Source: Escherichia phage 235Ecol030PP. From it: a stretch of DNA of 64,000 bases. The translations under genes were made by a program, and so were the position numbers. Where the stretch lies: the sequence record PP355091.1; one strand, 5' to 3'. Positions within the stretch are counted from its first letter, which is position 1, and every line of letters begins with the position of its first letter. The notes under the pieces were generated by a model. That model saw only the letters and a program-made list of their open reading frames with translations. It was not told the origin of the DNA and did no database searches. Shown in pieces: positions 17,486 through 61,447 of this stretch.

Positions 17486-17489
17486 CAAT

Positions 17490-17520
17490 GGGGACCTTTC
17501 GGTCCCCATATTTTTATTTA
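17490..17520 (+). terminator. Intrinsic terminator after gene 54
   Basis: ggggacc-tttc-ggtcccc then atatttttattta. Confidence 0.7.
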
Positions 17521-17804
17521 CGGAATGAAATGAAAGCAGCAACTGAAGCAACTAAACTGTCTTCAATATAAACTTCAATTTTTACCGGAGCTTCTGACTC
17601 AAATTTACCTGTTACTACACCCTGAAAAATACTTTCAGTCTGTTCTGGCTTTGAAAAATTTTCAGAAGGAAAAATTCCAAACTTTTTATCTGTTCCGAAA
17701 ATTTTGATAAATTCATCATAAACCGCTTCGTTAAAAGCATTATCAGCAGGAATAACGCCTTCAACTACAAGTTCTTGACCTAAAAAGCGTAAAGAAGATT
17801 TCAT
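17514..17804 (-). CDS. Hypothetical protein (position of a T4 alt-upstream ORF)
   Basis: 96 aa ORF preceded by early promoter cassette and GAGGA Shine-Dalgarno. Confidence 0.5.
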   Translation of the reverse strand: MKSSLRFLGQELVVEGVIPADNAFNEAVYDEFIKIFGTDKKFGIFPSENFSKPEQTESIFQGVVTGKFESEAPVKIEVYIEDSLVASVAAFISFRK

Positions 17805-17835
17805 TTTGTGTTCCTCATGTTATGTCAGTAAGACT

Positions 17836-17865
17836 ACTATAACACAACACGAGGGACTTGTAAAC
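17836..17865 (-). promoter_or_regulatory. Early (sigma70-type) promoter for the 17514..17804 ORF
   Basis: - strand GTTTACA, 17-18 nt spacer, TATAGT; promoter plus leader nearly identical to the alc upstream region. Confidence 0.5.
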
Positions 17866-17879
17866 TACATTTTGAACTT

Positions 17880-18222
17880 TTTAGTACGCGTAATAGGCAT
17901 GCGTCGATTTTATACTGTTTCATTGTTTGAAGAGCAGTATCAAAACAGCATTAATGACACCAATTGGATTTCCACCCAAGTTTTTAAGCTTAACTAATGA
18001 TAGTTTCTCATTAACACCTATCATTACGATATGCATCATTTTGTCGCCTGGTTTAACGTTTTATCTGTATCACCGCCAGAGGTGTATGTACAAAATCTAA
18101 ATCCAGGAAGCACGCTTTCTTCGCCGGCTTGAATAGCAAAAATTTGAGGTATTTTATGCTTAGGATTTAAGTTAACAACCGGCGCCGAAGCGCCGTCAAA
18201 TAATTATGTAATAAGTTCCATG
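17880..18222 (-). pseudogene. Decayed duplicate of the alt 5' end (about first 100 codons)
   Basis: - strand translates MELIT*LFDGASAPVVNLNPKHKIPQIFAIQAGEESVLPGFRFCTYTSGGDTDK..., homologous to the Alt N-terminus but with stop at codon 6 and a later frameshift. Confidence 0.55.
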
Positions 18223-18224
18223 AT

Positions 18225-20276
18225 TTATCCTTGAACGAACTTGTAAGGCATGTTTGCAATATCTATGCAAGACGCAATAATTCCAAGAGATGATTCTACT
18301 TTCTGTTTAACATTTGATGAAACAAATGATGCAAAGTCAACTCTATCTTCTATATCACCTGTCATTGTAACCAATTCACCAGTTTCCATTAAATGGTCTC
18401 CGTCATAGATTACCGATTCGGTGAGTTCTTCTGTGGTCATAACTTCAGCTTGAATAAGCTTGTTGTTAGTTCTAACTGTTCCATCGTTGTAAGATGCATC
18501 GGTTATTTTATTAACTTTGACCATTAATCCACGTGGCAAAATGACTTCCATTTCATTTGAAGGCGCTAAACTTCCACCGGGTAAAACAACATTGACCTTA
18601 TCAGCCCCAGTAATAACCCATCCAATTCCAACTAAATTATCGCTAGAATTTACTAGTCCTTCATCAGTTTTATCAATAGAAACACTTAGACGCTTTTCGT
18701 CTGGTAAAACACCTATAGATGAATCAGTCATCCAAGTACCAAAAATATTTGGATATAATGATGTTGACACAAAGTTTCTAAAATAAAAAACTCGATTTTT
18801 TACCATTGCTTCATATATTGAAGGTAACATTCGTTGTGAACGATACAAAGTAATACCTTTTGGTAATCGTTCACCATTTTTAAAGGCTGAATCTAAATTA
18901 TCAATGGCTTGTTCTATTTCAGGTGCTGTTAAAATACTTGTACGCTCATCTGGATTATATAATCCCAAAAGAGCATTATTTATGTCTACATATCCTGAAC
19001 CTACATATTCACGAATTCCGCGTTTTTGCGCTGGCGTGTATTTAGATGAATCTTTATTTTCGACTATAGGATGTAATGACCATCCAGCGGTAAGAGCATA
19101 TCCACGTAATTCTCTTCGAATAATCTTTGTTTTTATTGCATTCCAAGAATTTTGTACTAACTCATTTGCAGCATCTTGGTTTAAATGCGAATGTCTGTTA
19201 ATATTTCTTTCAAACCAGGCACCTTTATATTTTTCTAAAGTATCATCGACGATAGAAGCAATAGTTTCTAAAGTTTTTATTGAAGTAATAGATTCTTTTC
19301 GTAATTTTTCTAAAGCTTTATTTTTTATTTCTGCATTAATAATGGATTCTTTATCTTCAGGAATTATAGAAGCTTCTCTGAATGCCATCCCAGCTGTAAC
19401 ACTGCTAAGAGCATTCTCTAGTGCAAATCCTGAAGTAGAAATTACCGTTAATTCATTAGAATCAGAAATTAAAGGCGCGTCCGCTGGTTTATTTAATTCT
19501 GCCGCTGAAGCCTCAAATTTTTGAAACATCGGTGTTTCAAATCTAGAAGATTCCAATGACTGACTTTGTGCAATTGCTCTACGGGAAATTTTAACTTTAA
19601 CGATTACAGCTTGGTCAGAACGTTTATCATTTTCTTGCGCAATAGATGCTGCAATTGCCTCATTTTTAGTTACTTGGGCTCCAGTATCTTTATTGATATA
19701 AACATCACCGACCTTCGATTCAACTTTAGTAAAGAGCTCGGTACTAATTTCCGGAACTCCTGGAATGTCTTCTAGTGATACATTTTTGCGATGTATAAGA
19801 ATATATGCATACTTTTTATCATAATCCCAGAGTTCCTTAAGAAGGACGTATCTGCCACCTGAACGACTACGGATAAGTCTATCAGCAATAACTTGAATTT
19901 GTCGAGCTTGACCAGCGGTTTTAGACTTAAGAATACGAAGCATACAGGCATCAATTTTATACTGACGCATCGTTTGCATTGCAACAGTAAAAACTGAATT
20001 GATATAATTAATTGGGCTTGGACCAAGACCTTTCAATTTAGCAATTGAACCTTTAGCGGTTAATGTAAAAGGAACAATATGCATCATTTTATCGCCCATC
20101 TTTAAATCACGATTAGTATCACCTCCAGATGTATAGGTACATAAACGAAAGCCTGGTTGTTCAATTGCGTCATCAACATGAACTGAAAAAATTTGCGGTA
20201 TTTTCTTCTTTGGATTTAAGTTTGTAATCGGAAGAGTAGTATCTTCGTCAAATAATTCTGTAATTAGTTCCATCAT
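18225..20276 (-). CDS. alt: Alt ADP-ribosyltransferase (packaged internal head protein)
   Basis: 683 aa (T4 Alt 682 aa); position after gene 54. Confidence 0.9.
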   Translation of the reverse strand: MMELITELFDEDTTLPITNLNPKKKIPQIFSVHVDDAIEQPGFRLCTYTSGGDTNRDLKMGDKMMHIVPFTLTAKGSIAKLKGLGPSPINYINSVFTVAMQTMRQYKIDACMLRILKSKTAGQARQIQVIADRLIRSRSGGRYVLLKELWDYDKKYAYILIHRKNVSLEDIPGVPEISTELFTKVESKVGDVYINKDTGAQVTKNEAIAASIAQENDKRSDQAVIVKVKISRRAIAQSQSLESSRFETPMFQKFEASAAELNKPADAPLISDSNELTVISTSGFALENALSSVTAGMAFREASIIPEDKESIINAEIKNKALEKLRKESITSIKTLETIASIVDDTLEKYKGAWFERNINRHSHLNQDAANELVQNSWNAIKTKIIRRELRGYALTAGWSLHPIVENKDSSKYTPAQKRGIREYVGSGYVDINNALLGLYNPDERTSILTAPEIEQAIDNLDSAFKNGERLPKGITLYRSQRMLPSIYEAMVKNRVFYFRNFVSTSLYPNIFGTWMTDSSIGVLPDEKRLSVSIDKTDEGLVNSSDNLVGIGWVITGADKVNVVLPGGSLAPSNEMEVILPRGLMVKVNKITDASYNDGTVRTNNKLIQAEVMTTEELTESVIYDGDHLMETGELVTMTGDIEDRVDFASFVSSNVKQKVESSLGIIASCIDIANMPYKFVQG

Positions 20277-24257: not shown

Positions 24258-24635
24258 TTAAATATCAAATTCGTTAAGAACTACATCAAAGATTGCTTCA
24301 AGATGCTCAGGTTTAGCTCTGTTACTCAGAATATGACGAATCCAAGTTTTAACCAAAAGCTTGCGATTAACGCCATTCCAGCAAGGATGAGTCCCTAAAT
24401 CGCGTTGACGAAAATCATCATCCAGAGCGATTTTGAAGTTTGAACCTTCCATTGTGATTGAAACCGTGATTCCATTTTCAAATCGCATATAAACGTAATT
24501 AGGAGTCATATACTGCTCAATTTCGCATACTGATCCATTTTGATGTTTCCAAAGGCAAATAGTATCAATAGAACCTGCAATACCATTAGAAACATATTTA
24601 CGTTCAAAGTTGATGTAGTTCATTTTATTCTCCAA
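24258..24635 (-). CDS. Hypothetical protein
   Basis: 125 aa; GGAG Shine-Dalgarno and early promoter upstream. Confidence 0.5.
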   Translation of the reverse strand: MENKMNYINFERKYVSNGIAGSIDTICLWKHQNGSVCEIEQYMTPNYVYMRFENGITVSITMEGSNFKIALDDDFRQRDLGTHPCWNGVNRKLLVKTWIRHILSNRAKPEHLEAIFDVVLNEFDI

Positions 24636-24659
24636 GATGTTTAATTGCGGTACAGGTAT

Positions 24660-24688
24660 ATAATATCATATCCTGTACCAAAGTAAAC
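24660..24688 (-). promoter_or_regulatory. Early promoter candidate
   Basis: - strand TTTACT, spacer, TATTAT; upstream TTGCATAAA. Confidence 0.4.
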
Positions 24689-24692
24689 TATT

Positions 24693-25061
24693 TTATGCAA
24701 CTTTAATCCAATTATCTAAATTTAATTCACCTTTGGCTTTCATTTTTTCAATCAAGAGGTCAGCGGTAATACGACCATTTTGATACCACGTAACATCTTC
24801 AGAGTAACCAGTTTCTTTATCTTCATAAGTCTCGCAGCGAATTTTACCAAGAATCAAAGTTTTTAATTCGTATGTATCTCCAGTAAAAAAGTTAGTTAAC
24901 ATTATTTTCCAAGAGAAATCATCAGAAGGACCTTCAGGAGTCATACAATCTACGAATTCAAATTGTTCTTTGTATAAGTGCCACTGAAGTTCTTTAGTTT
25001 CGATAGCTTTATAGCCGTCGTGATCTTTACCTTTGATGTATGAGTTAAGATTGATTTTCAT
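24693..25061 (-). CDS. Hypothetical protein
   Basis: 122 aa. Confidence 0.5.
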   Translation of the reverse strand: MKINLNSYIKGKDHDGYKAIETKELQWHLYKEQFEFVDCMTPEGPSDDFSWKIMLTNFFTGDTYELKTLILGKIRCETYEDKETGYSEDVTWYQNGRITADLLIEKMKAKGELNLDNWIKVA

Positions 25062-25088
25062 TTTATTCTCCTTTGTTTGTGTAAGATA

Positions 25089-25118
25089 ATACTATCACAA
25101 AGGAACCATACTGTAAAC
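25089..25118 (-). promoter_or_regulatory. Early promoter candidate
   Basis: - strand GTTTACA, 17 nt, TAGTAT; upstream TTGCATAAA. Confidence 0.45.
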
Positions 25119-28118: not shown

Positions 28119-28639
28119 GTTGATCCTAGCTCCTTACTTTCAACATTTTTAACTAATTTGACAGAAACTAATTCAGCATCTTGAGTAATCATTACCGGAC
28201 CTTCTTCATACTCTTCAAGATATTCTAGAGCTTTCTTTTTAGCTTCTTCCTTCGTATCAGTTTGAGCATAGATATAAAACATACAACCAGTAATACCTAC
28301 TACTTTCCACTTAATTTCTTTATCAGCTTTAATTTCAAATTTACTGACAGAATCATCTTTTTGAACTTCTTCGAAAAAAGAATATTCTAACATATAAGCA
28401 ATTGAAAATAACGGGCTATCTTTATAGGATTCGCCCATTACATCAATAGCTTTATACCAGCAGTCATCAATTTCGCGTTTAATGCTAATAACATTTTTCG
28501 CAGGATCTATTTTTACTTTAAATGAATTTTCCCCAATAAACTGGGCAATTCGTTTATTAGCCCCGCAAGTTTCATTAAAAATATCTTTATACCCAGTTTT
28601 AAAGCGATAAACCTTATCTTCTTCAAACCATTCGCTCAT
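28112..28639 (-). CDS. Hypothetical protein
   Basis: 175 aa. Confidence 0.5.
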   Translation of the reverse strand: MSEWFEEDKVYRFKTGYKDIFNETCGANKRIAQFIGENSFKVKIDPAKNVISIKREIDDCWYKAIDVMGESYKDSPLFSIAYMLEYSFFEEVQKDDSVSKFEIKADKEIKWKVVGITGCMFYIYAQTDTKEEAKKKALEYLEEYEEGPVMITQDAELVSVKLVKNVESKELGSTC

Positions 28640-28701
28640 TTCAATTTCCTCATTTGTTTTGGTAGAGCCATAATATCACAACTCTACCGTAAAGTAAACC
28701 A

Positions 28702-30799: not shown

Positions 30800-31149
30800 T
30801 TAGAAAGGTCCTGGATGTCTTCTGCGAACTTGTTGAAGGAGTTGTTGATTTGTTTTTCAACCAATCCTGGCTTATGAGCCACCACATCCGCCTTCTTTGC
30901 GTCTTTGCGCAGTTTTTCATTTTCACGCTCAATAGCAGCAATTGCCTCACGATTTTTATTATTCATCGCATCAATATAATTATACTGAATTCGCAAATTA
31001 TTTAATGCTAAGGCGTTTTCATTGGCCGTTTTTGTAATTTCAGTAACTGATGTTTCTAATCTTTCTACCTTATTTTTTAAAATAATAGATGTTCCGCCAA
31101 ATGCTATTACAAGTAATAGCAATCCAGCTGTAAAATTACTTACATGCAT
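30796..31149 (-). CDS. Inner-membrane spanin candidate
   Basis: 117 aa; N-terminal TM helix then coiled-coil. Confidence 0.55.
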   Translation of the reverse strand: MHVSNFTAGLLLLVIAFGGTSIILKNKVERLETSVTEITKTANENALALNNLRIQYNYIDAMNNKNREAIAAIERENEKLRKDAKKADVVAHKPGLVEKQINNSFNKFAEDIQDLSK

Positions 31150-31646
31150 AAAGTTTTAATAACCTCTACAATATCGTCTTGAGAAAGACCGTTAATTAAA
31201 ATATGATGTTCAGCTGGAGATTTAGAAATTTTAAAGCATGCCTCAACATCTTCTGCCATATCCGATGCGCTACGATTTGGATTACTAATTCCAAGACGAT
31301 GTTTTCCCGTCAAAGGATTAACGATGATATAGCATTTACAATTATTGATATGAACATTAGGTTGAGTCTGATTAATGAACACATCACAATCATATTTCGC
31401 AAGCTGATTTTCTAAAAAGACTTTCATCTCCTCAACTGCATCAGGAAGCATATCACGGGCTTGCTCAAGACGACGATTTCGATATTCTTTAATGGTCGTT
31501 TTCCGCTTGACTTGCTTAGCTAAATCTTTCTTAAGATCGGTGATATATCCAACTCGACGATTTCCTTTAAATACAGAAATCCCATCTGTAGTATCACCGT
31601 ATGCTTCAACGACCATTTCAGTAGTAATAAGCTGTAAATCCATCAT
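31140..31646 (-). CDS. alc: Alc, inhibitor of host transcription on cytosine DNA
   Basis: 168 aa (T4 Alc about 167 aa); position between pseT cluster and rnlA. Confidence 0.7.
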   Translation of the reverse strand: MMDLQLITTEMVVEAYGDTTDGISVFKGNRRVGYITDLKKDLAKQVKRKTTIKEYRNRRLEQARDMLPDAVEEMKVFLENQLAKYDCDVFINQTQPNVHINNCKCYIIVNPLTGKHRLGISNPNRSASDMAEDVEACFKISKSPAEHHILINGLSQDDIVEVIKTLCM

Positions 31647-31674
31647 AAAGTCCTCATGTTATGTCAGTAAGTCT

Positions 31675-31704
31675 ACTGTAACACAACACGAGGGACTTGT
31701 AAAC
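31675..31704 (-). promoter_or_regulatory. Early promoter for alc
   Basis: - strand GTTTACA, spacer, TACAGT; promoter plus leader about 95 percent identical to 17806..17865. Confidence 0.5.
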
Positions 31705-31707
31705 AGC

Positions 31708-33295
<1,588 letters not shown>

Positions 33296-38748: not shown

Positions 38749-39067
38749 CATTATGTTCAGATAAGGTCGTTAATCTTACCCCGGAATTATATCCAGCTGC
38801 ATGTCACCATGCAGATCAGACTATATCTTCAACTTGTTAAAGCAAGTTGTCTATCGTTTCGAGTCACTTGACCCTACTCCCCAAAGGGATAGTCGTTAGG
38901 CATTTATGTAGAACCAATTCCATTATCAGATTTTACACGGTAAGTAACTAATCCTGATGAAATTATTAAAGGGTAGTCCTACAATTTAGCACGGGATTGT
39001 CTACTAGAGAGGTTCCCCGTTTAGATAGATTACAAGTATAAGTCACCTTATACTCAGGCCTCAATTA
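38749..39067 (-). ncRNA. Group I self-splicing intron in td, ORF-less (319 nt)
   Basis: - strand begins UAAUUGAGGCCUGAGUAUAAGGUGACUUAUACUUGUAAUCUAUCUAAACGGGGAACC, matching the T4 td intron 5' end from memory; ends AUAAUG; no ORF. Confidence 0.85.
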
Positions 39068-39615
39068 ACCCAAGAAAACATCTACTGATCGTTGATACCA
39101 CTGCAAATCCAAATAACCATTACGCACATTAAACTGATAGAACATATGACAAGGTGGTAATGCCATATATTTAAGTTCAGCTGGATTCCACGCAGAAACA
39201 ATTTGACGCCTATCATTTGGCAGTTTTTTAATACGATCAATAACTTCTATAATTTGATCTACACCACCAAAATCACGCCACTGTTTTCCATAAATTGGAC
39301 CAAGTTCACCGCTATGGTATCCTAAATCTTTTGCTTGATTTTCGTAATTTTCATCCCAAACTGTTTTGCCTTGGATTAACGAATCATGTTGAATTAATCG
39401 CAAATCATTGACATTTGTGCTTCCCGATAAAAACCAAAGCAGCTCAGCAATGCAAGCTTTCCAGGCGAGCTTCTTAGTTGTTACTGCAGGAAAACCTTTA
39501 GTTAAATCCCAGCGTAATTTAGTACCGAACAAAGCAATTGTTCCTGTGCCTGTTCGGTCATCGGTTTCGTAGCCATTTTCCAGGATATCTTTAATTAAAA
39601 ATTGGTATTGTTTCA

Positions 39616-40655: not shown

Positions 40656-40898
40656 TTAAACAGACTTTTTCACAATTTTCCAATCAGCTTTAAACTGTTC
40701 AACGTCAGAATGGTAAATCCAAAATCCTGCGCTTTCTCCGTCTTCATAAAGAGGACATCCATCGCATTCATCTTCCCATCCCATATCACGTAAAAGATGT
40801 TCAGCTTTTTCAACAAGTTCAGAATCTTTACCGATGATATTAAAATACCATTTACCTCTAACTTCTGAATCTTTGATGCTCTGGCGTTGTAATCTCAT
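40656..40898 (-). CDS. Hypothetical protein (position of T4 frd.2)
   Basis: 80 aa; GAGGAG Shine-Dalgarno; early promoter upstream. Confidence 0.5.
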   Translation of the reverse strand: MRLQRQSIKDSEVRGKWYFNIIGKDSELVEKAEHLLRDMGWEDECDGCPLYEDGESAGFWIYHSDVEQFKADWKIVKKSV

Positions 40899-40926
40899 TT
40901 TATTCTCCTCAGTAGTTGATAGGGTA

Positions 40927-40956
40927 ATAGTATCACACTACTACCCTGTTGTAAAC
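40927..40956 (-). promoter_or_regulatory. Early promoter candidate
   Basis: - strand GTTTACA, 17 nt, TACTAT, then leader TACCCTATCAACTAC. Confidence 0.5.
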
Positions 40957-41923: not shown

Positions 41924-41953
41924 ATAGTACCATAGAAGAACAGGGATGTAAAC
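41924..41953 (-). promoter_or_regulatory. Early promoter candidate
   Basis: - strand TTCACAAAACGGTTTACA, 17 nt, TACTAT, ACAACTATC. Confidence 0.5.
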
Positions 41954-61289: not shown

Positions 61290-61389
61290 AGTAAGCGTTT
61301 AATACATCAATCATTAAAACGATTGGGAATATACTCAAAACTATTAGTATTATAACTACATTCCATATAGCTTTAACAATCTTTTTCAT
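61276..61389 (-). CDS. Hypothetical 37 aa membrane peptide
   Basis: MKKIVKAIWNVVIILIVLSIFPIVLMI...; GGAGG Shine-Dalgarno just downstream of a promoter. Confidence 0.35.
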   Translation of the reverse strand: MKKIVKAIWNVVIILIVLSIFPIVLMIDVLNAYFGFM

Positions 61390-61417
61390 TTTCTGTTCCT
61401 CCGTAGTTGATAGGGTA

Positions 61418-61447
61418 ATAGTACCACGGAAGAACAGTCTTGTAAAC
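61418..61447 (-). promoter_or_regulatory. Early promoter candidate
   Basis: - strand GTTTACA, 17 nt, TACTAT, TACCCTATCAACTAC. Confidence 0.5.

Follow-up and report, generated by a model that had tools for sequence, protein, structure and literature searches.

A duplicated early promoter–leader module in front of alc and alt.-3 in a T-even phage, with a predicted hairpin over the Shine–Dalgarno sequence

The genes alc and alt.-3 of Escherichia phage 235Ecol030PP (PP355091.1) lie about 14 kb apart and are preceded by nearly the same 54-bp promoter–leader cassette. On balance, we consider it probable that this cassette is an early expression module whose hairpin masks the Shine–Dalgarno (SD) sequence, and that the two copies go back to an ancestral conversion from alc to alt.-3, with no current exchange between them. 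The cassette is a genuine and tidy case of an already known kind of element and not a new system. The window, i.e., the whole stretch of 64,000 nucleotides that was analysed, belongs to Tequatrovirus. The two copies are as follows:

31651..31704, minus strand: cassette copy A, promoter, leader and SD 5' of alc (T4 orthologue, L003 17284-17337)
17812..17865, minus strand: cassette copy B, 54 bp 5' of alt.-3 (T4 orthologue, L003 4041-4094)

Read along the minus strand, the repeat runs from 31704 to 31651 and from 17865 to 17812. A pattern search of the window returned exactly these two sites, both on the minus strand, and none was found in dinucleotide-preserving shuffles (n = 100). The copies agree at 52/54 positions, the exceptions being cassette positions 27 (C vs T) and 33 (A vs T). 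The near-identical pair with two mismatches reported in the preliminary description is thus borne out over 54 bp; the 5' edges given there (31650..31704 and 17810..17865) are right, while the 3' edges are wrong by one or two bases. The shared block is bounded by GTTTAC on the 5' side and by GAGGA on the 3' side, and the flanking DNA is unrelated on either side. In the pairwise alignment, identity runs through the whole leader. The 54-mer slid along both strands gives 14.3 matches on average (sd 3.2), and the next-best matches in the window (27–29/54) are other GTTTAC early promoters. A likeness at the level of the promoter consensus does not describe the pair, because its similarity is far above that of generic promoters (52/54 vs 29/54 for the best other site). 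A duplication reaching into the coding regions was considered and rejected, since BLASTP of Alc against Alt.-3 returned nothing at E <= 100. The first codons of the two genes bear a faint likeness (DLQLITTEMVVE vs SLRFLGQELVVE), which was treated as chance.

The presence of a sigma-70-type −35/−10 pair together with an SD inside the cassette, also suggested earlier, was confirmed by a consensus scan:

31675..31703, minus strand: promoter of copy A, TTTACA, 17-bp spacer, TACAGT, TG-extended (consensus scan 9/12)
17836..17864, minus strand: promoter of copy B, TTTACA, 17-bp spacer, TATAGT, TG-extended (consensus scan 10/12)

Phage Lutter carries a promoter annotation at the copy B site. Both promoters share with canonical T4 early promoters the GTTTAC/TTTACA −35 element, the 17-bp spacer, the TG-extended −10 element and early downstream genes, whereas their −10 hexamers are TATAGT or TACAGT and the canonical ones are more often TATTAT or TACTAT. 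The other early promoters of the window have the hexamers, the upstream A/T tract and the +1 region in common with the cassette but differ in spacer and leader (at most 29/54), while the alc/alt.-3 pair has everything from −36 to the SD in common. Transcription would start near 31668 in copy A and near 17829 in copy B, at about cassette position 37, the predicted +1 being set from the usual 7-nt gap after the −10 hexamer alone. In T4, to whose orthologues and not to 235Ecol030PP the expression data belong, alc and alt.-3 are early at the RNA and protein level and alt is late (PMC9697503, supplementary tables); the T4 Alt.-3 protein rises early and then reaches a plateau.

The genes around the two copies are all encoded on the minus strand:

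31140..31646, minus strand: alc, inhibitor of host transcription (Pfam PF17527, E 4.5e-92; synteny with T4)
31708..32835, minus strand: rnlA (gene 63), with Pfam RNA ligase domains; its stop codon is 3 nt 5' of the cassette
17514..17804, minus strand: alt.-3, 96 aa, DUF5498 (Pfam PF17602, E 1.4e-64)
17866..18224, minus strand: remnant, now degenerate, of a second alt paralogue, the counterpart of T4 alt.-1/alt.-2; it abuts the 5' edge of the cassette
18225..20276, minus strand: alt, packaged ADP-ribosyltransferase (Pfam ADPrib_exo_Tox), late in T4

In T4, alc is annotated from the second ATG, the equivalent of 31643 in the present sequence. Matches to alt.-3 were found by tblastn in 836 phage records across Tevenvirinae, the T-even phage subfamily. 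Compared with the 5' part of alt, the remnant at 17866..18224 is about 70% identical at the nucleotide level and carries in-frame stop codons, and its final codons, KKFKM*, are those at the end of Dhakavirus altb. The idea that the cassette edge is the deletion junction of this second alt gene was rejected: the remnant keeps its last codons, and therefore the junction lies further upstream than the cassette edge. A terminator scan found no terminator-like site between rnlA and the cassette. Read-through transcripts would enter alc from rnlA and alt.-3 from the late gene alt.

Aside from being repeated, the cassette is an inverted repeat in itself, in which the promoter spacer and −10 element face the leader and the ribosome-binding site. 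This hairpin across the −10 region had been overlooked in the preliminary description. Its arms, taken from minimum-free-energy structures, are the following:

31674..31698, minus strand: 5' arm of copy A, spacer and −10 element with the anti-SD CCCUC
31648..31669, minus strand: 3' arm of copy A, initial transcribed region and SD (GAGG 31655..31652)
17835..17857, minus strand: 5' arm of copy B (fold −23.0 kcal/mol, z −4.42)
17810..17830, minus strand: 3' arm of copy B, including the SD (GAGG 17816..17813)

The 5' arm contains CCCTCGTG. The predicted stem comprises about 20 bp with one bulge and pairs GAGG with CCUC. Folded in context, it reaches −30.5 kcal/mol at alc (z −4.08) and −23.3 kcal/mol at alt.-3 (z −3.66); for the 70 nt counted from GTTTAC, the values are −25.7 (z −4.55) and −23.0 (z −4.42), respectively. 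Leaders beginning at the predicted +1 are unstructured (0 to −1.4 kcal/mol). The hairpin has the predicted +1 at its top, and RNA made from the cassette's own promoter would lack the 5' arm.

The alc hairpin is kept by compensatory changes across at least 12 T4-like lineages. The same fold is present in 20/26 alc cassettes from other genera (z −2.4 to −5.7), and the long hairpin is absent from RB69-type alc cassettes. RNAalifold found no pairs in a plain MAFFT alignment of alc cassettes, since the 3' halves do not line up there; it was replaced by arm-swap duplex energies and a covariance-model alignment. When arms were swapped, cognate duplexes averaged −20.1 kcal/mol vs −10.1 kcal/mol for non-cognate ones, and the cognate arm was the best partner in 11/12 rows and 11/12 columns. 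In the covariance-model alignment, which is fitted to the structure and whose counts are thus biased towards it, 85.9% of cells are paired vs 64.5% in shuffled controls (0/500) and 34–46% with the partners slid, and all 15 pairs have changed on both sides. The sense strand holds 39 G.U vs 13 A.C pairs. Within Tequatrovirus, all the stem variants (C15T, C11T, C42T, G16A, and G40A) retain Watson–Crick or wobble pairing. In at least 10 lineages, the SD is exactly where the 3' arm of the alc hairpin stops, and within the 5' arm conservation is highest at the anti-SD CCUC; the stem sequence otherwise varies freely between genera, with a length of 9 to 20 bp.

The hairpin could also be a transcriptional terminator or attenuator insulating alc and alt.-3 from transcription that arrives from upstream, the masking of the SD being incidental. 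In PMC2839356, the authors who described promoter-early stem-loops (PeSLs) in T4-like phages interpret them as terminators or attenuators, and promoter-overlapping PeSL stem-loops placed between promoter and reporter lowered lacZ expression, a result that leaves termination and translation block unseparated. Of the early promoters in the window, roughly half (5–7/12) have a hairpin across the −10 element, and several of these structures exclude the SD, as seen at the window promoters 24688, 28699, and 40956; the same is true of the promoter-spanning hairpins in the alc cassettes of L036 and L054. Because several promoter-spanning hairpins leave the SD out, such hairpins may generally serve something other than SD masking. 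At the two cassettes, however, the terminator scan made no call, there is no U-tract after either hairpin, and the sequences 3' of them, CUUUAUGAUG and ACACAAAAUG, are not those of intrinsic terminators. Together with the exact placement of the alc 3' arm on the SD in at least 10 lineages and the particular conservation of the anti-SD, this makes an insulating terminator unlikely here.

It is still less likely, and in our judgement improbable, that the duplex is a processing or stability element, serving as an RNase III site or protecting the rnlA and alt messages at their 3' ends, with the identity of the copies reflecting selection for one optimal substrate. A stem of about 20 bp with one bulge falls in the size class of RNase III substrates, and the covariation does indicate a selected RNA structure. 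On the other hand, the stem varies freely apart from the SD and anti-SD, down to 9 bp in length, and Rfam contains no matching family, giving only hairpin-like miRNA matches at E about 0.4. A conserved upstream mini-ORF (AUG AGG ... UGA) was also considered and rejected: in both copies it is a start-codon overlap, and it is not conserved in other genera.

We thus return to the masking of the SD, for which the following scheme can be proposed. Each copy is a self-contained module, in which a strong early promoter of the sigma-70 type is followed by some 20 nt of leader and by the SD. RNA that reads through from rnlA into alc or from alt into alt.-3 would fold into the hairpin of about 20 bp and hide the SD, while RNA from the module's own promoter would lack the 5' arm and expose the SD. 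In this way, the module may tie translation to its own promoter. Early transcripts would then be the source of Alc and Alt.-3, to the exclusion of the longer read-through RNA of the middle and late periods. Such a scheme would account for alt.-3 acting early though it lies directly behind the late gene alt, and would give a testable reason why the synthesis of Alc and Alt.-3 stops once early promoters are shut off.

The 54-bp module predates the genus. T4 carries the pair too (53/54), and 997 cassette copies were found in 499 related genomes, essentially two per genome; the search that gave these 499 records found none beyond such close relatives. Variants were sampled further by an IMG/VR scan and a metagenome collection scan, which gave only 7 and 9 stretches, respectively.

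As for the origin of the pair, outgroups are informative. In RB69, Dhakavirus, Gaprivervirus, and Marfavirus, alt.-3 has a different promoter and only a short hairpin within the spacer, with no SD sequestration in 3/4 of them, while alc in at least 12 lineages is of the type with an anti-SD directly after the −35 element. The direction of copying could not be read from identity alone, since the T4 cassette is 0.66–0.77 identical to outgroup alc cassettes and 0.62–0.74 to outgroup alt.-3 cassettes; the polarity rests on architecture and parsimony. By these, the most likely event is that, in the ancestor of Tequatrovirus, the native alt.-3 promoter–leader was replaced by that of alc through patch conversion. 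The alternative offered in the preliminary description, that one gene captured the regulatory region of the other, is therefore the reading best supported by outgroup comparison. The route was likely a short-patch conversion or a template switch, with the ends common to both cassettes, GTTTACAA and ACATGAGGA, as anchors. VR5, alone of six Dhakavirus contigs, has an alc leader identical to its alt.-3 leader over 31 nt, in which a comparable patch conversion in the opposite direction (alt.-3 to alc) is apparently seen; this indicates that patch conversions between the two loci do happen.

Since the copying, each cassette would have drifted on its own at the pace usual for the genus, and their near-identity would reflect history, not ongoing exchange. 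The cassette variants within Tequatrovirus are confined to one locus or the other, with no continuing homogenisation. The identity might instead be held by selection, either for strict co-regulation of alc and alt.-3, with equal promoter strength, timing and leader, or for a shared trans-acting factor that binds the DNA or RNA. Both are early genes that accompany functions directed at RNA polymerase (Alc, Alt), and in RB69 and VR5 the two leaders resemble each other as well. However, the cassette is conserved within the genus no better than its flanks (97–99% identical), a single ancestral copying followed by neutral drift predicts the one or two differences seen, and the two loci have different variants in the loop and the −10 element. 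We know of no candidate trans-acting factor and regard selection for identity as the least probable of the explanations weighed here.

The two direct repeats might also be chiefly a substrate for homologous recombination, leading to deletion, duplication or excised circles of the interval of about 14 kb. They are 54 bp long, about 96% identical and in direct orientation; T4 recombination is said in PMC2839356 to need only homology patches of <50 bp, and the same source describes PeSL–PeSL recombination yielding circles as demonstrated in RB49 and phi1. Against this, the related records carry essentially two copies each, and the locus-specific variants give no sign of exchange between the copies. 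Within the interval lie DNA ligase (gene 30), the gp31 co-chaperonin, cd, pseT, and alt. T4 cannot do without genes 30 and 31, and the loss of the interval would not be viable for that reason. T4 packages DNA by the headful, so a 14-kb duplication would consume terminal redundancy. BYEP02, the one shorter record checked (154.7 kb, i.e., 14.5 kb shorter than BYEP01 with its 169.2 kb), was examined as a possible natural deletion and rejected, since gene 31, ligase, alt and alt.-3 are all still present in it. The comparative data contain no trace of deletion or circle formation between cassettes, and they support two patch conversions. Of the earlier suggestions, inversion of the interval fails since direct repeats only delete or duplicate, and deletion of about 14 kb is not supported, given the essential genes inside, the copy number of about two per genome and the intact interval of BYEP02. 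Recombination between the copies is physically possible today but would remove essential genes, and a chiefly recombinational role seems to us distinctly improbable. For T4 genome engineering, there is a small practical point here: the pair of 54-bp repeats is stable, and the phage cannot lose the interval that they enclose.

An ancestral conversion of a hairpin-bearing module would mean that regulatory modules can be copied between unrelated genes of a lytic phage while the genes themselves stay in place. Related hairpin promoters are present elsewhere in the window. One may ask, tentatively and with more doubt than confidence, whether promoter-in-hairpin modules, transplantable by patch conversion, make up a general level of T-even early control that has not been described before. 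If so, a large share of early promoters (5–7/12 in the window, and the alc promoter in at least 12 genera) would sit in selected RNA hairpins that silence the downstream cistron on read-through, each early gene would be translated solely from its own promoter, and transfer of a whole module between genes would rewire translational timing in one step.

Among known systems, the PeSL cassettes (Arbiol et al. 2010, PMC2839356; Comeau et al. 2014, PMC4122927) are one of the two closest. According to these papers, they share with the present cassette an early promoter with a stem-loop between the −35 and −10 elements or over the −10 element, a 3' end that carries the SD and the start codon of the gene downstream, as found here, and similar copies within a genome that are credited with exchanges between loci. 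The cassette fits the published PST/T4 consensus TTTACW-N17-TAYWAT except for one −10 base. PeSLs occur in many copies in hyperplastic regions beside ORFans, whereas here there are essentially two per genome beside the conserved genes alc and alt.-3. Unlike PeSLs, the cassette has no G/C-tract stem and no terminator signature; its stem-loop pairs the spacer with the SD, a pairing on which the text of the PeSL papers is silent, and the exchange concerns the cassette itself by patch conversion, whereas for PeSLs it is described there as gain or loss of gene cassettes. The main text of Comeau et al. 2014 (PMC4122927) does not mention alc or alt. If the present reading holds, PeSL-type stem-loops of T-even phages would be selected as RNA structures, in alc with the ribosome-binding site included, and their interpretation would shift to translational gates, terminators or both.

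The other comparison is with the T4 genes e, soc, 49, and I-TevI, which have ribosome-binding-site hairpins with an internal promoter (PMC3014915, section 29; alc is not mentioned in this review). As predicted for the cassette, the SD is buried in a helix in RNA started upstream, and the promoter lies in the DNA encoding the 5' strand; the genes' own transcripts lack this strand and are therefore translatable. The internal promoter of e, soc, 49, and I-TevI is late (TATAAATA), and their translation is thus delayed until late infection. The promoter of the cassette is of the early sigma-70 type, and therefore the opposite effect is predicted, i.e., that translation of alc and alt.-3 is confined to the early period. 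By analogy, then, the cassette appears to act like the e/soc/49/I-TevI class, without being a strict member because its internal promoter is early and not late.

A 54-bp early promoter–leader cassette, with the minus-strand sequence GTTTACAAGTCCCTCGTGTTGTGTTA(C/T)AGTAG(A/T)CTTACTGACATAACATGAGGA, was located by pattern search at two sites in the window:

31704..31651, minus strand: cassette copy at alc, followed by CTTT-ATG-ATG, the alc start
17865..17812, minus strand: cassette copy at alt.-3, followed by ACACAAA-ATG, where a 96-aa ORF begins

The near-identical duplication reported in the preliminary description is borne out. The two copies agree at 52 of 54 positions, the identical tract runs exactly from GTTTAC to GAGGA, the flanks are unrelated to each other in pairwise comparison, and 100 shuffles yielded no match to the pattern. 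When the 54-mer was slid over both strands of the window, the background was 14.3 ± 3.2 matches and the best other sites, all of them other GTTTAC early promoters, reached only 27–29/54; thus, the likeness extends far beyond the common promoter consensus. The sigma70-like −35/−10 pair and Shine–Dalgarno (SD) sequence described earlier are also present. A consensus scan gives TTTACA, a 17-bp spacer, and TATAGT (TACAGT in the window's alc copy) preceded by TG; a leader of about 20 nt follows, and then GAGG 5–8 nt ahead of ATG.

Several hundred Tequatrovirus (T4-like) genomes share 97–99% identity with the window, and genes in the region were named by synteny with T4 and by Pfam. Their minus-strand order is rnlA, alc (PF17527), pseT.3 to pseT, cd, gene 31 (Cpn10), rIII, 30.x, gene 30 (ligase), alt.1, alt (ADP-ribosyltransferase), an alt remnant, and the 96-aa ORF. 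The latter is alt.-3 of T4 (DUF5498) and converges on gene 54; it is an old gene, for which tblastn gave 836 records spread over the T-even phage subfamily (Tevenvirinae), with its position unchanged. Two neighboring features are:

17488-17509, both strands: likely bidirectional terminator at the alt.-3/gene 54 junction, a perfect 9-bp G+C-rich hairpin with T-runs on each strand
17866-18224, minus strand: pseudogenised second alt paralogue, with about 70% nucleotide identity to alt and in-frame stops

In the remnant, the degenerate first ~115 alt codons are joined to KKFKM*, the final codons of a second alt paralogue, and two intact alt genes, alta and altb, exist in Dhakaviruses. Since KKFKM* is retained, the cassette edge was ruled out as the deletion junction of the second alt. 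The locus is polymorphic, as a full-length match occurs in only 90 of 499 relatives.

The pair is not peculiar to this phage. T4 carries it with 53/54 identity. In a BLAST search of 50,697 phage records, the 54-mer matched at 997 places in 499 records, or essentially two per genome, and these were all close relatives. The type of element has been described both as a T4 early promoter and among the promoter-early stem-loop (PeSL) cassettes of T4-like phages.

The inverted-repeat nature of the cassette was overlooked in the preliminary description: AAGUCC-C-UCGUGUUGUGUUA, from the spacer and −10, pairs with UGACAUAACAUGAGGACUU, from the leader and SD. Fold prediction gave the following values.

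Predicted folding of RNA at the two cassette copies
91-nt RNA spanning the cassette: alc −30.5 kcal/mol, z −4.08; alt.-3 −23.3 kcal/mol, z −3.66
70-nt RNA from GTTTAC: alc −25.7 kcal/mol, z −4.55; alt.-3 −23.0 kcal/mol, z −4.42
RNA from the predicted +1 (cassette position 37): alc −1.4 kcal/mol; alt.-3 0 kcal/mol

None of the shuffles of the 70-nt segments matched the real fold energy. The hairpin might act in attenuation, but no U run lies 3′ of the stem in either copy, and a terminator scan made no call at either cassette. No Rfam family matches the hairpin; the only match above gathering score in the window is a group I intron (RF00028, 73.8 bits, E 7.7e-17) at 38797-39077 on the minus strand, in the td region by offset from T4, and no second intron was called at the T4 nrdB intron position.

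The modeled hairpin was then compared across alc upstream regions from 41 T4-like contigs and alt.-3 upstream regions from 18. In most genera, the alc cassette keeps its layout with a different sequence, the leader and SD having their reverse complement in the bases directly behind the −35 (ATCCTCATTTTGTTG/CAACAAAATGAGGAT, TCTCCATTTGGTT/AACCAAATGGAGA, and CCTCGTTTGTT/AACAAACGAGG; also CCTCTCATTTTT/AAAAATGAGAGG versus CCTCTCGTTTTT/AAAAACGAGAGG in a relative). Such a fold is predicted for 20 of 26 alc cassettes (z −2.4 to −5.7). Exceptions are RB69-like cassettes and three other lineages, which have a short intra-spacer hairpin only, and two related contigs, L036 and L054, whose stems end 3 nt before the SD. 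The complementarity is specific, since in arm swaps among 12 lineages the mean was −20.1 kcal/mol for cognate duplexes and −10.1 (sd 3.4) for non-cognate ones, with the cognate arm the best partner in 11/12 rows and 11/12 columns. Seven cassettes were used to build a covariance model, which picks up every alc cassette, the two Tequatrovirus copies, and some further early promoters. In its alignment, which is itself fitted to the model, 85.9% of cells are paired versus 64.5% in shuffles (0/500) and 34–46% with slid partners, and all 15 stem pairs vary on both sides. The excess of G·U over A·C pairs on the sense strand (39 versus 13), together with the Tequatrovirus stem substitutions C11T, C15T, G16A, G40A, and C42T, which all keep Watson–Crick or wobble pairing, argues for a sense-strand RNA structure rather than a DNA feature. 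As modeled, the hairpin containing the SD shows itself to be a selected RNA structure.

Related hairpins occur elsewhere. On the minus strand of the window, GTTTAC early promoters lie inside −10-spanning hairpins at 24619-24688 (z −4.55), 28630-28699 (−2.63), 61378-61447 (−5.54), 25049-25118 (−1.98), and 40887-40956 (−1.90), and the SD is also paired in those ending at 61447 and 25118. Across 12 window promoters, the cognate spacer/leader duplex averages −11.9 kcal/mol versus −7.25 for non-cognate ones (0/20,000 permutations as good); five of the 12 lack such structure. Translational gating by a promoter within a hairpin is a possibility for T-even early genes in general. Several of the promoter-spanning hairpins leave out the SD, so masking may be neither their sole nor their general role, and an RNase III processing element is another possible function of the cassette hairpin. 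The minus-strand promoters at 41953, 58304, and 61960 have in common a long upstream A/T tract with cacaaaacgGTTTAC, and gtggtactatacaactatc around −10/+1, while their spacers differ, a sharing pattern opposite to that of the alc/alt.-3 pair.

How the two copies came to match is suggested by the outgroups. The alt.-3 genes of RB69, two Dhakaviruses, Gaprivervirus VR25, and Marfavirus are preceded by an early promoter and leader of their own, which belong to another type (GTTTACAACACCACAAGGATGTGGTACTAT...) and show no anti-SD arm after the −35. The outgroup promoters in contigs L065, L064, L081, and L077 form a small intra-spacer hairpin with a stem compensated between genera (CCACA/TGTGG, CACAT/ATGTG, GCAC/GTGC), and three of four outgroup contexts lack a significant fold. 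In VR25, UUCCUC in the alt 3′ end can base-pair with the SD of alt.-3 (z −1.98). In at least 12 lineages, the layout that puts an anti-SD immediately behind the −35 is that of alc, and TAGACTTAC after the −10 is common to alc copies of Tequatrovirus, Dhakavirus, and contigs L057–59. Parsimony therefore favors the earlier suggestion that one gene captured the other's regulatory region: in a Tequatrovirus ancestor, the alc cassette would have overwritten the native alt.-3 promoter–leader, with tract edges probably within GTTTACAA and ACATGAGGA, common to both cassette types. As percent identity by itself is indecisive on the direction of copying, we infer the latter. In Dhakavirus VR5 (L013/L024), CCTTACACAAACATGAGGAGAACATTATGAA, a 31-mer, precedes both alt.-3 and alc, and in five other Dhakavirus contigs (L025–L029) it precedes alt.-3 only. 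This looks like a recent alt.-3-to-alc patch conversion, leaving the alc hairpin intact (−20.2 kcal/mol, z −3.75), and indicates that such conversions do happen between the two loci. Tequatrovirus variants are locus-specific (T27C, T33A, and C15T at alc only; G40A, C12A, G29A, G32A, C42T, and C11T/C15T/G16A at alt.-3 only), which speaks against ongoing homogenization; the one or two differences between copies are what one ancestral event plus 1–3% genus-level drift predicts.

The repeats had also been proposed as a recombination substrate. Their length, 54 bp, would suffice for T4 recombination according to literature quoted in PMC2839356, but loss of the interval would remove ligase and gp31, and none of the 499 genomes was seen to be rearranged. 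Recombination is thus possible as a rare side reaction and not as the purpose of the element. The proposed inversion of the ~14 kb interval fails, direct repeats being incapable of inverting it. BYEP02, a shorter related record, was rejected on inspection as a naturally rearranged genome.

In the literature searched (the T4 genome review and Repoila 1994 lay outside its scope), we found no explicit description of spacer–SD pairing, of hairpin covariation at alc across genera, or of the two putative alc/alt.-3 patch conversions.

In T4, alc and alt.-3 are expressed early and the gene upstream of alt.-3 late (PMC9697503). In a published proteome time course, T4 Alt.-3 climbs early and then reaches a plateau; the protein (P39493, DUF5498) is among the more abundant early ones, at 1–2e9 intensity by the fourth time point and flat thereafter. 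A terminator scan made no call in the stretches that separate the cassettes from the genes upstream. Transcripts reading through from rnlA or alt would include alc or alt.-3, whose ribosome-binding site would be masked; efficient translation would come only from RNA begun at the cassette's own promoter, and the early class of that promoter would restrict synthesis to the early phase.

In its layout, the cassette matches PeSLs as published: these combine an early promoter with a stem-loop that lies between the promoter boxes or over them, and they carry the SD at their 3′ end. In PMC2839356 and PMC4122927, the authors read that stem-loop both as a recombination site and as a terminator or attenuator. 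The gating proposed here would follow the logic established for T4 e, soc, 49, and I-TevI, where, according to section 29 of PMC3014915, a late promoter lies within DNA encoding the 5′ strand of an inhibitory helix. The internal promoter of the alc/alt.-3 cassette is early, unlike the late one in those genes, so early-only synthesis is expected.
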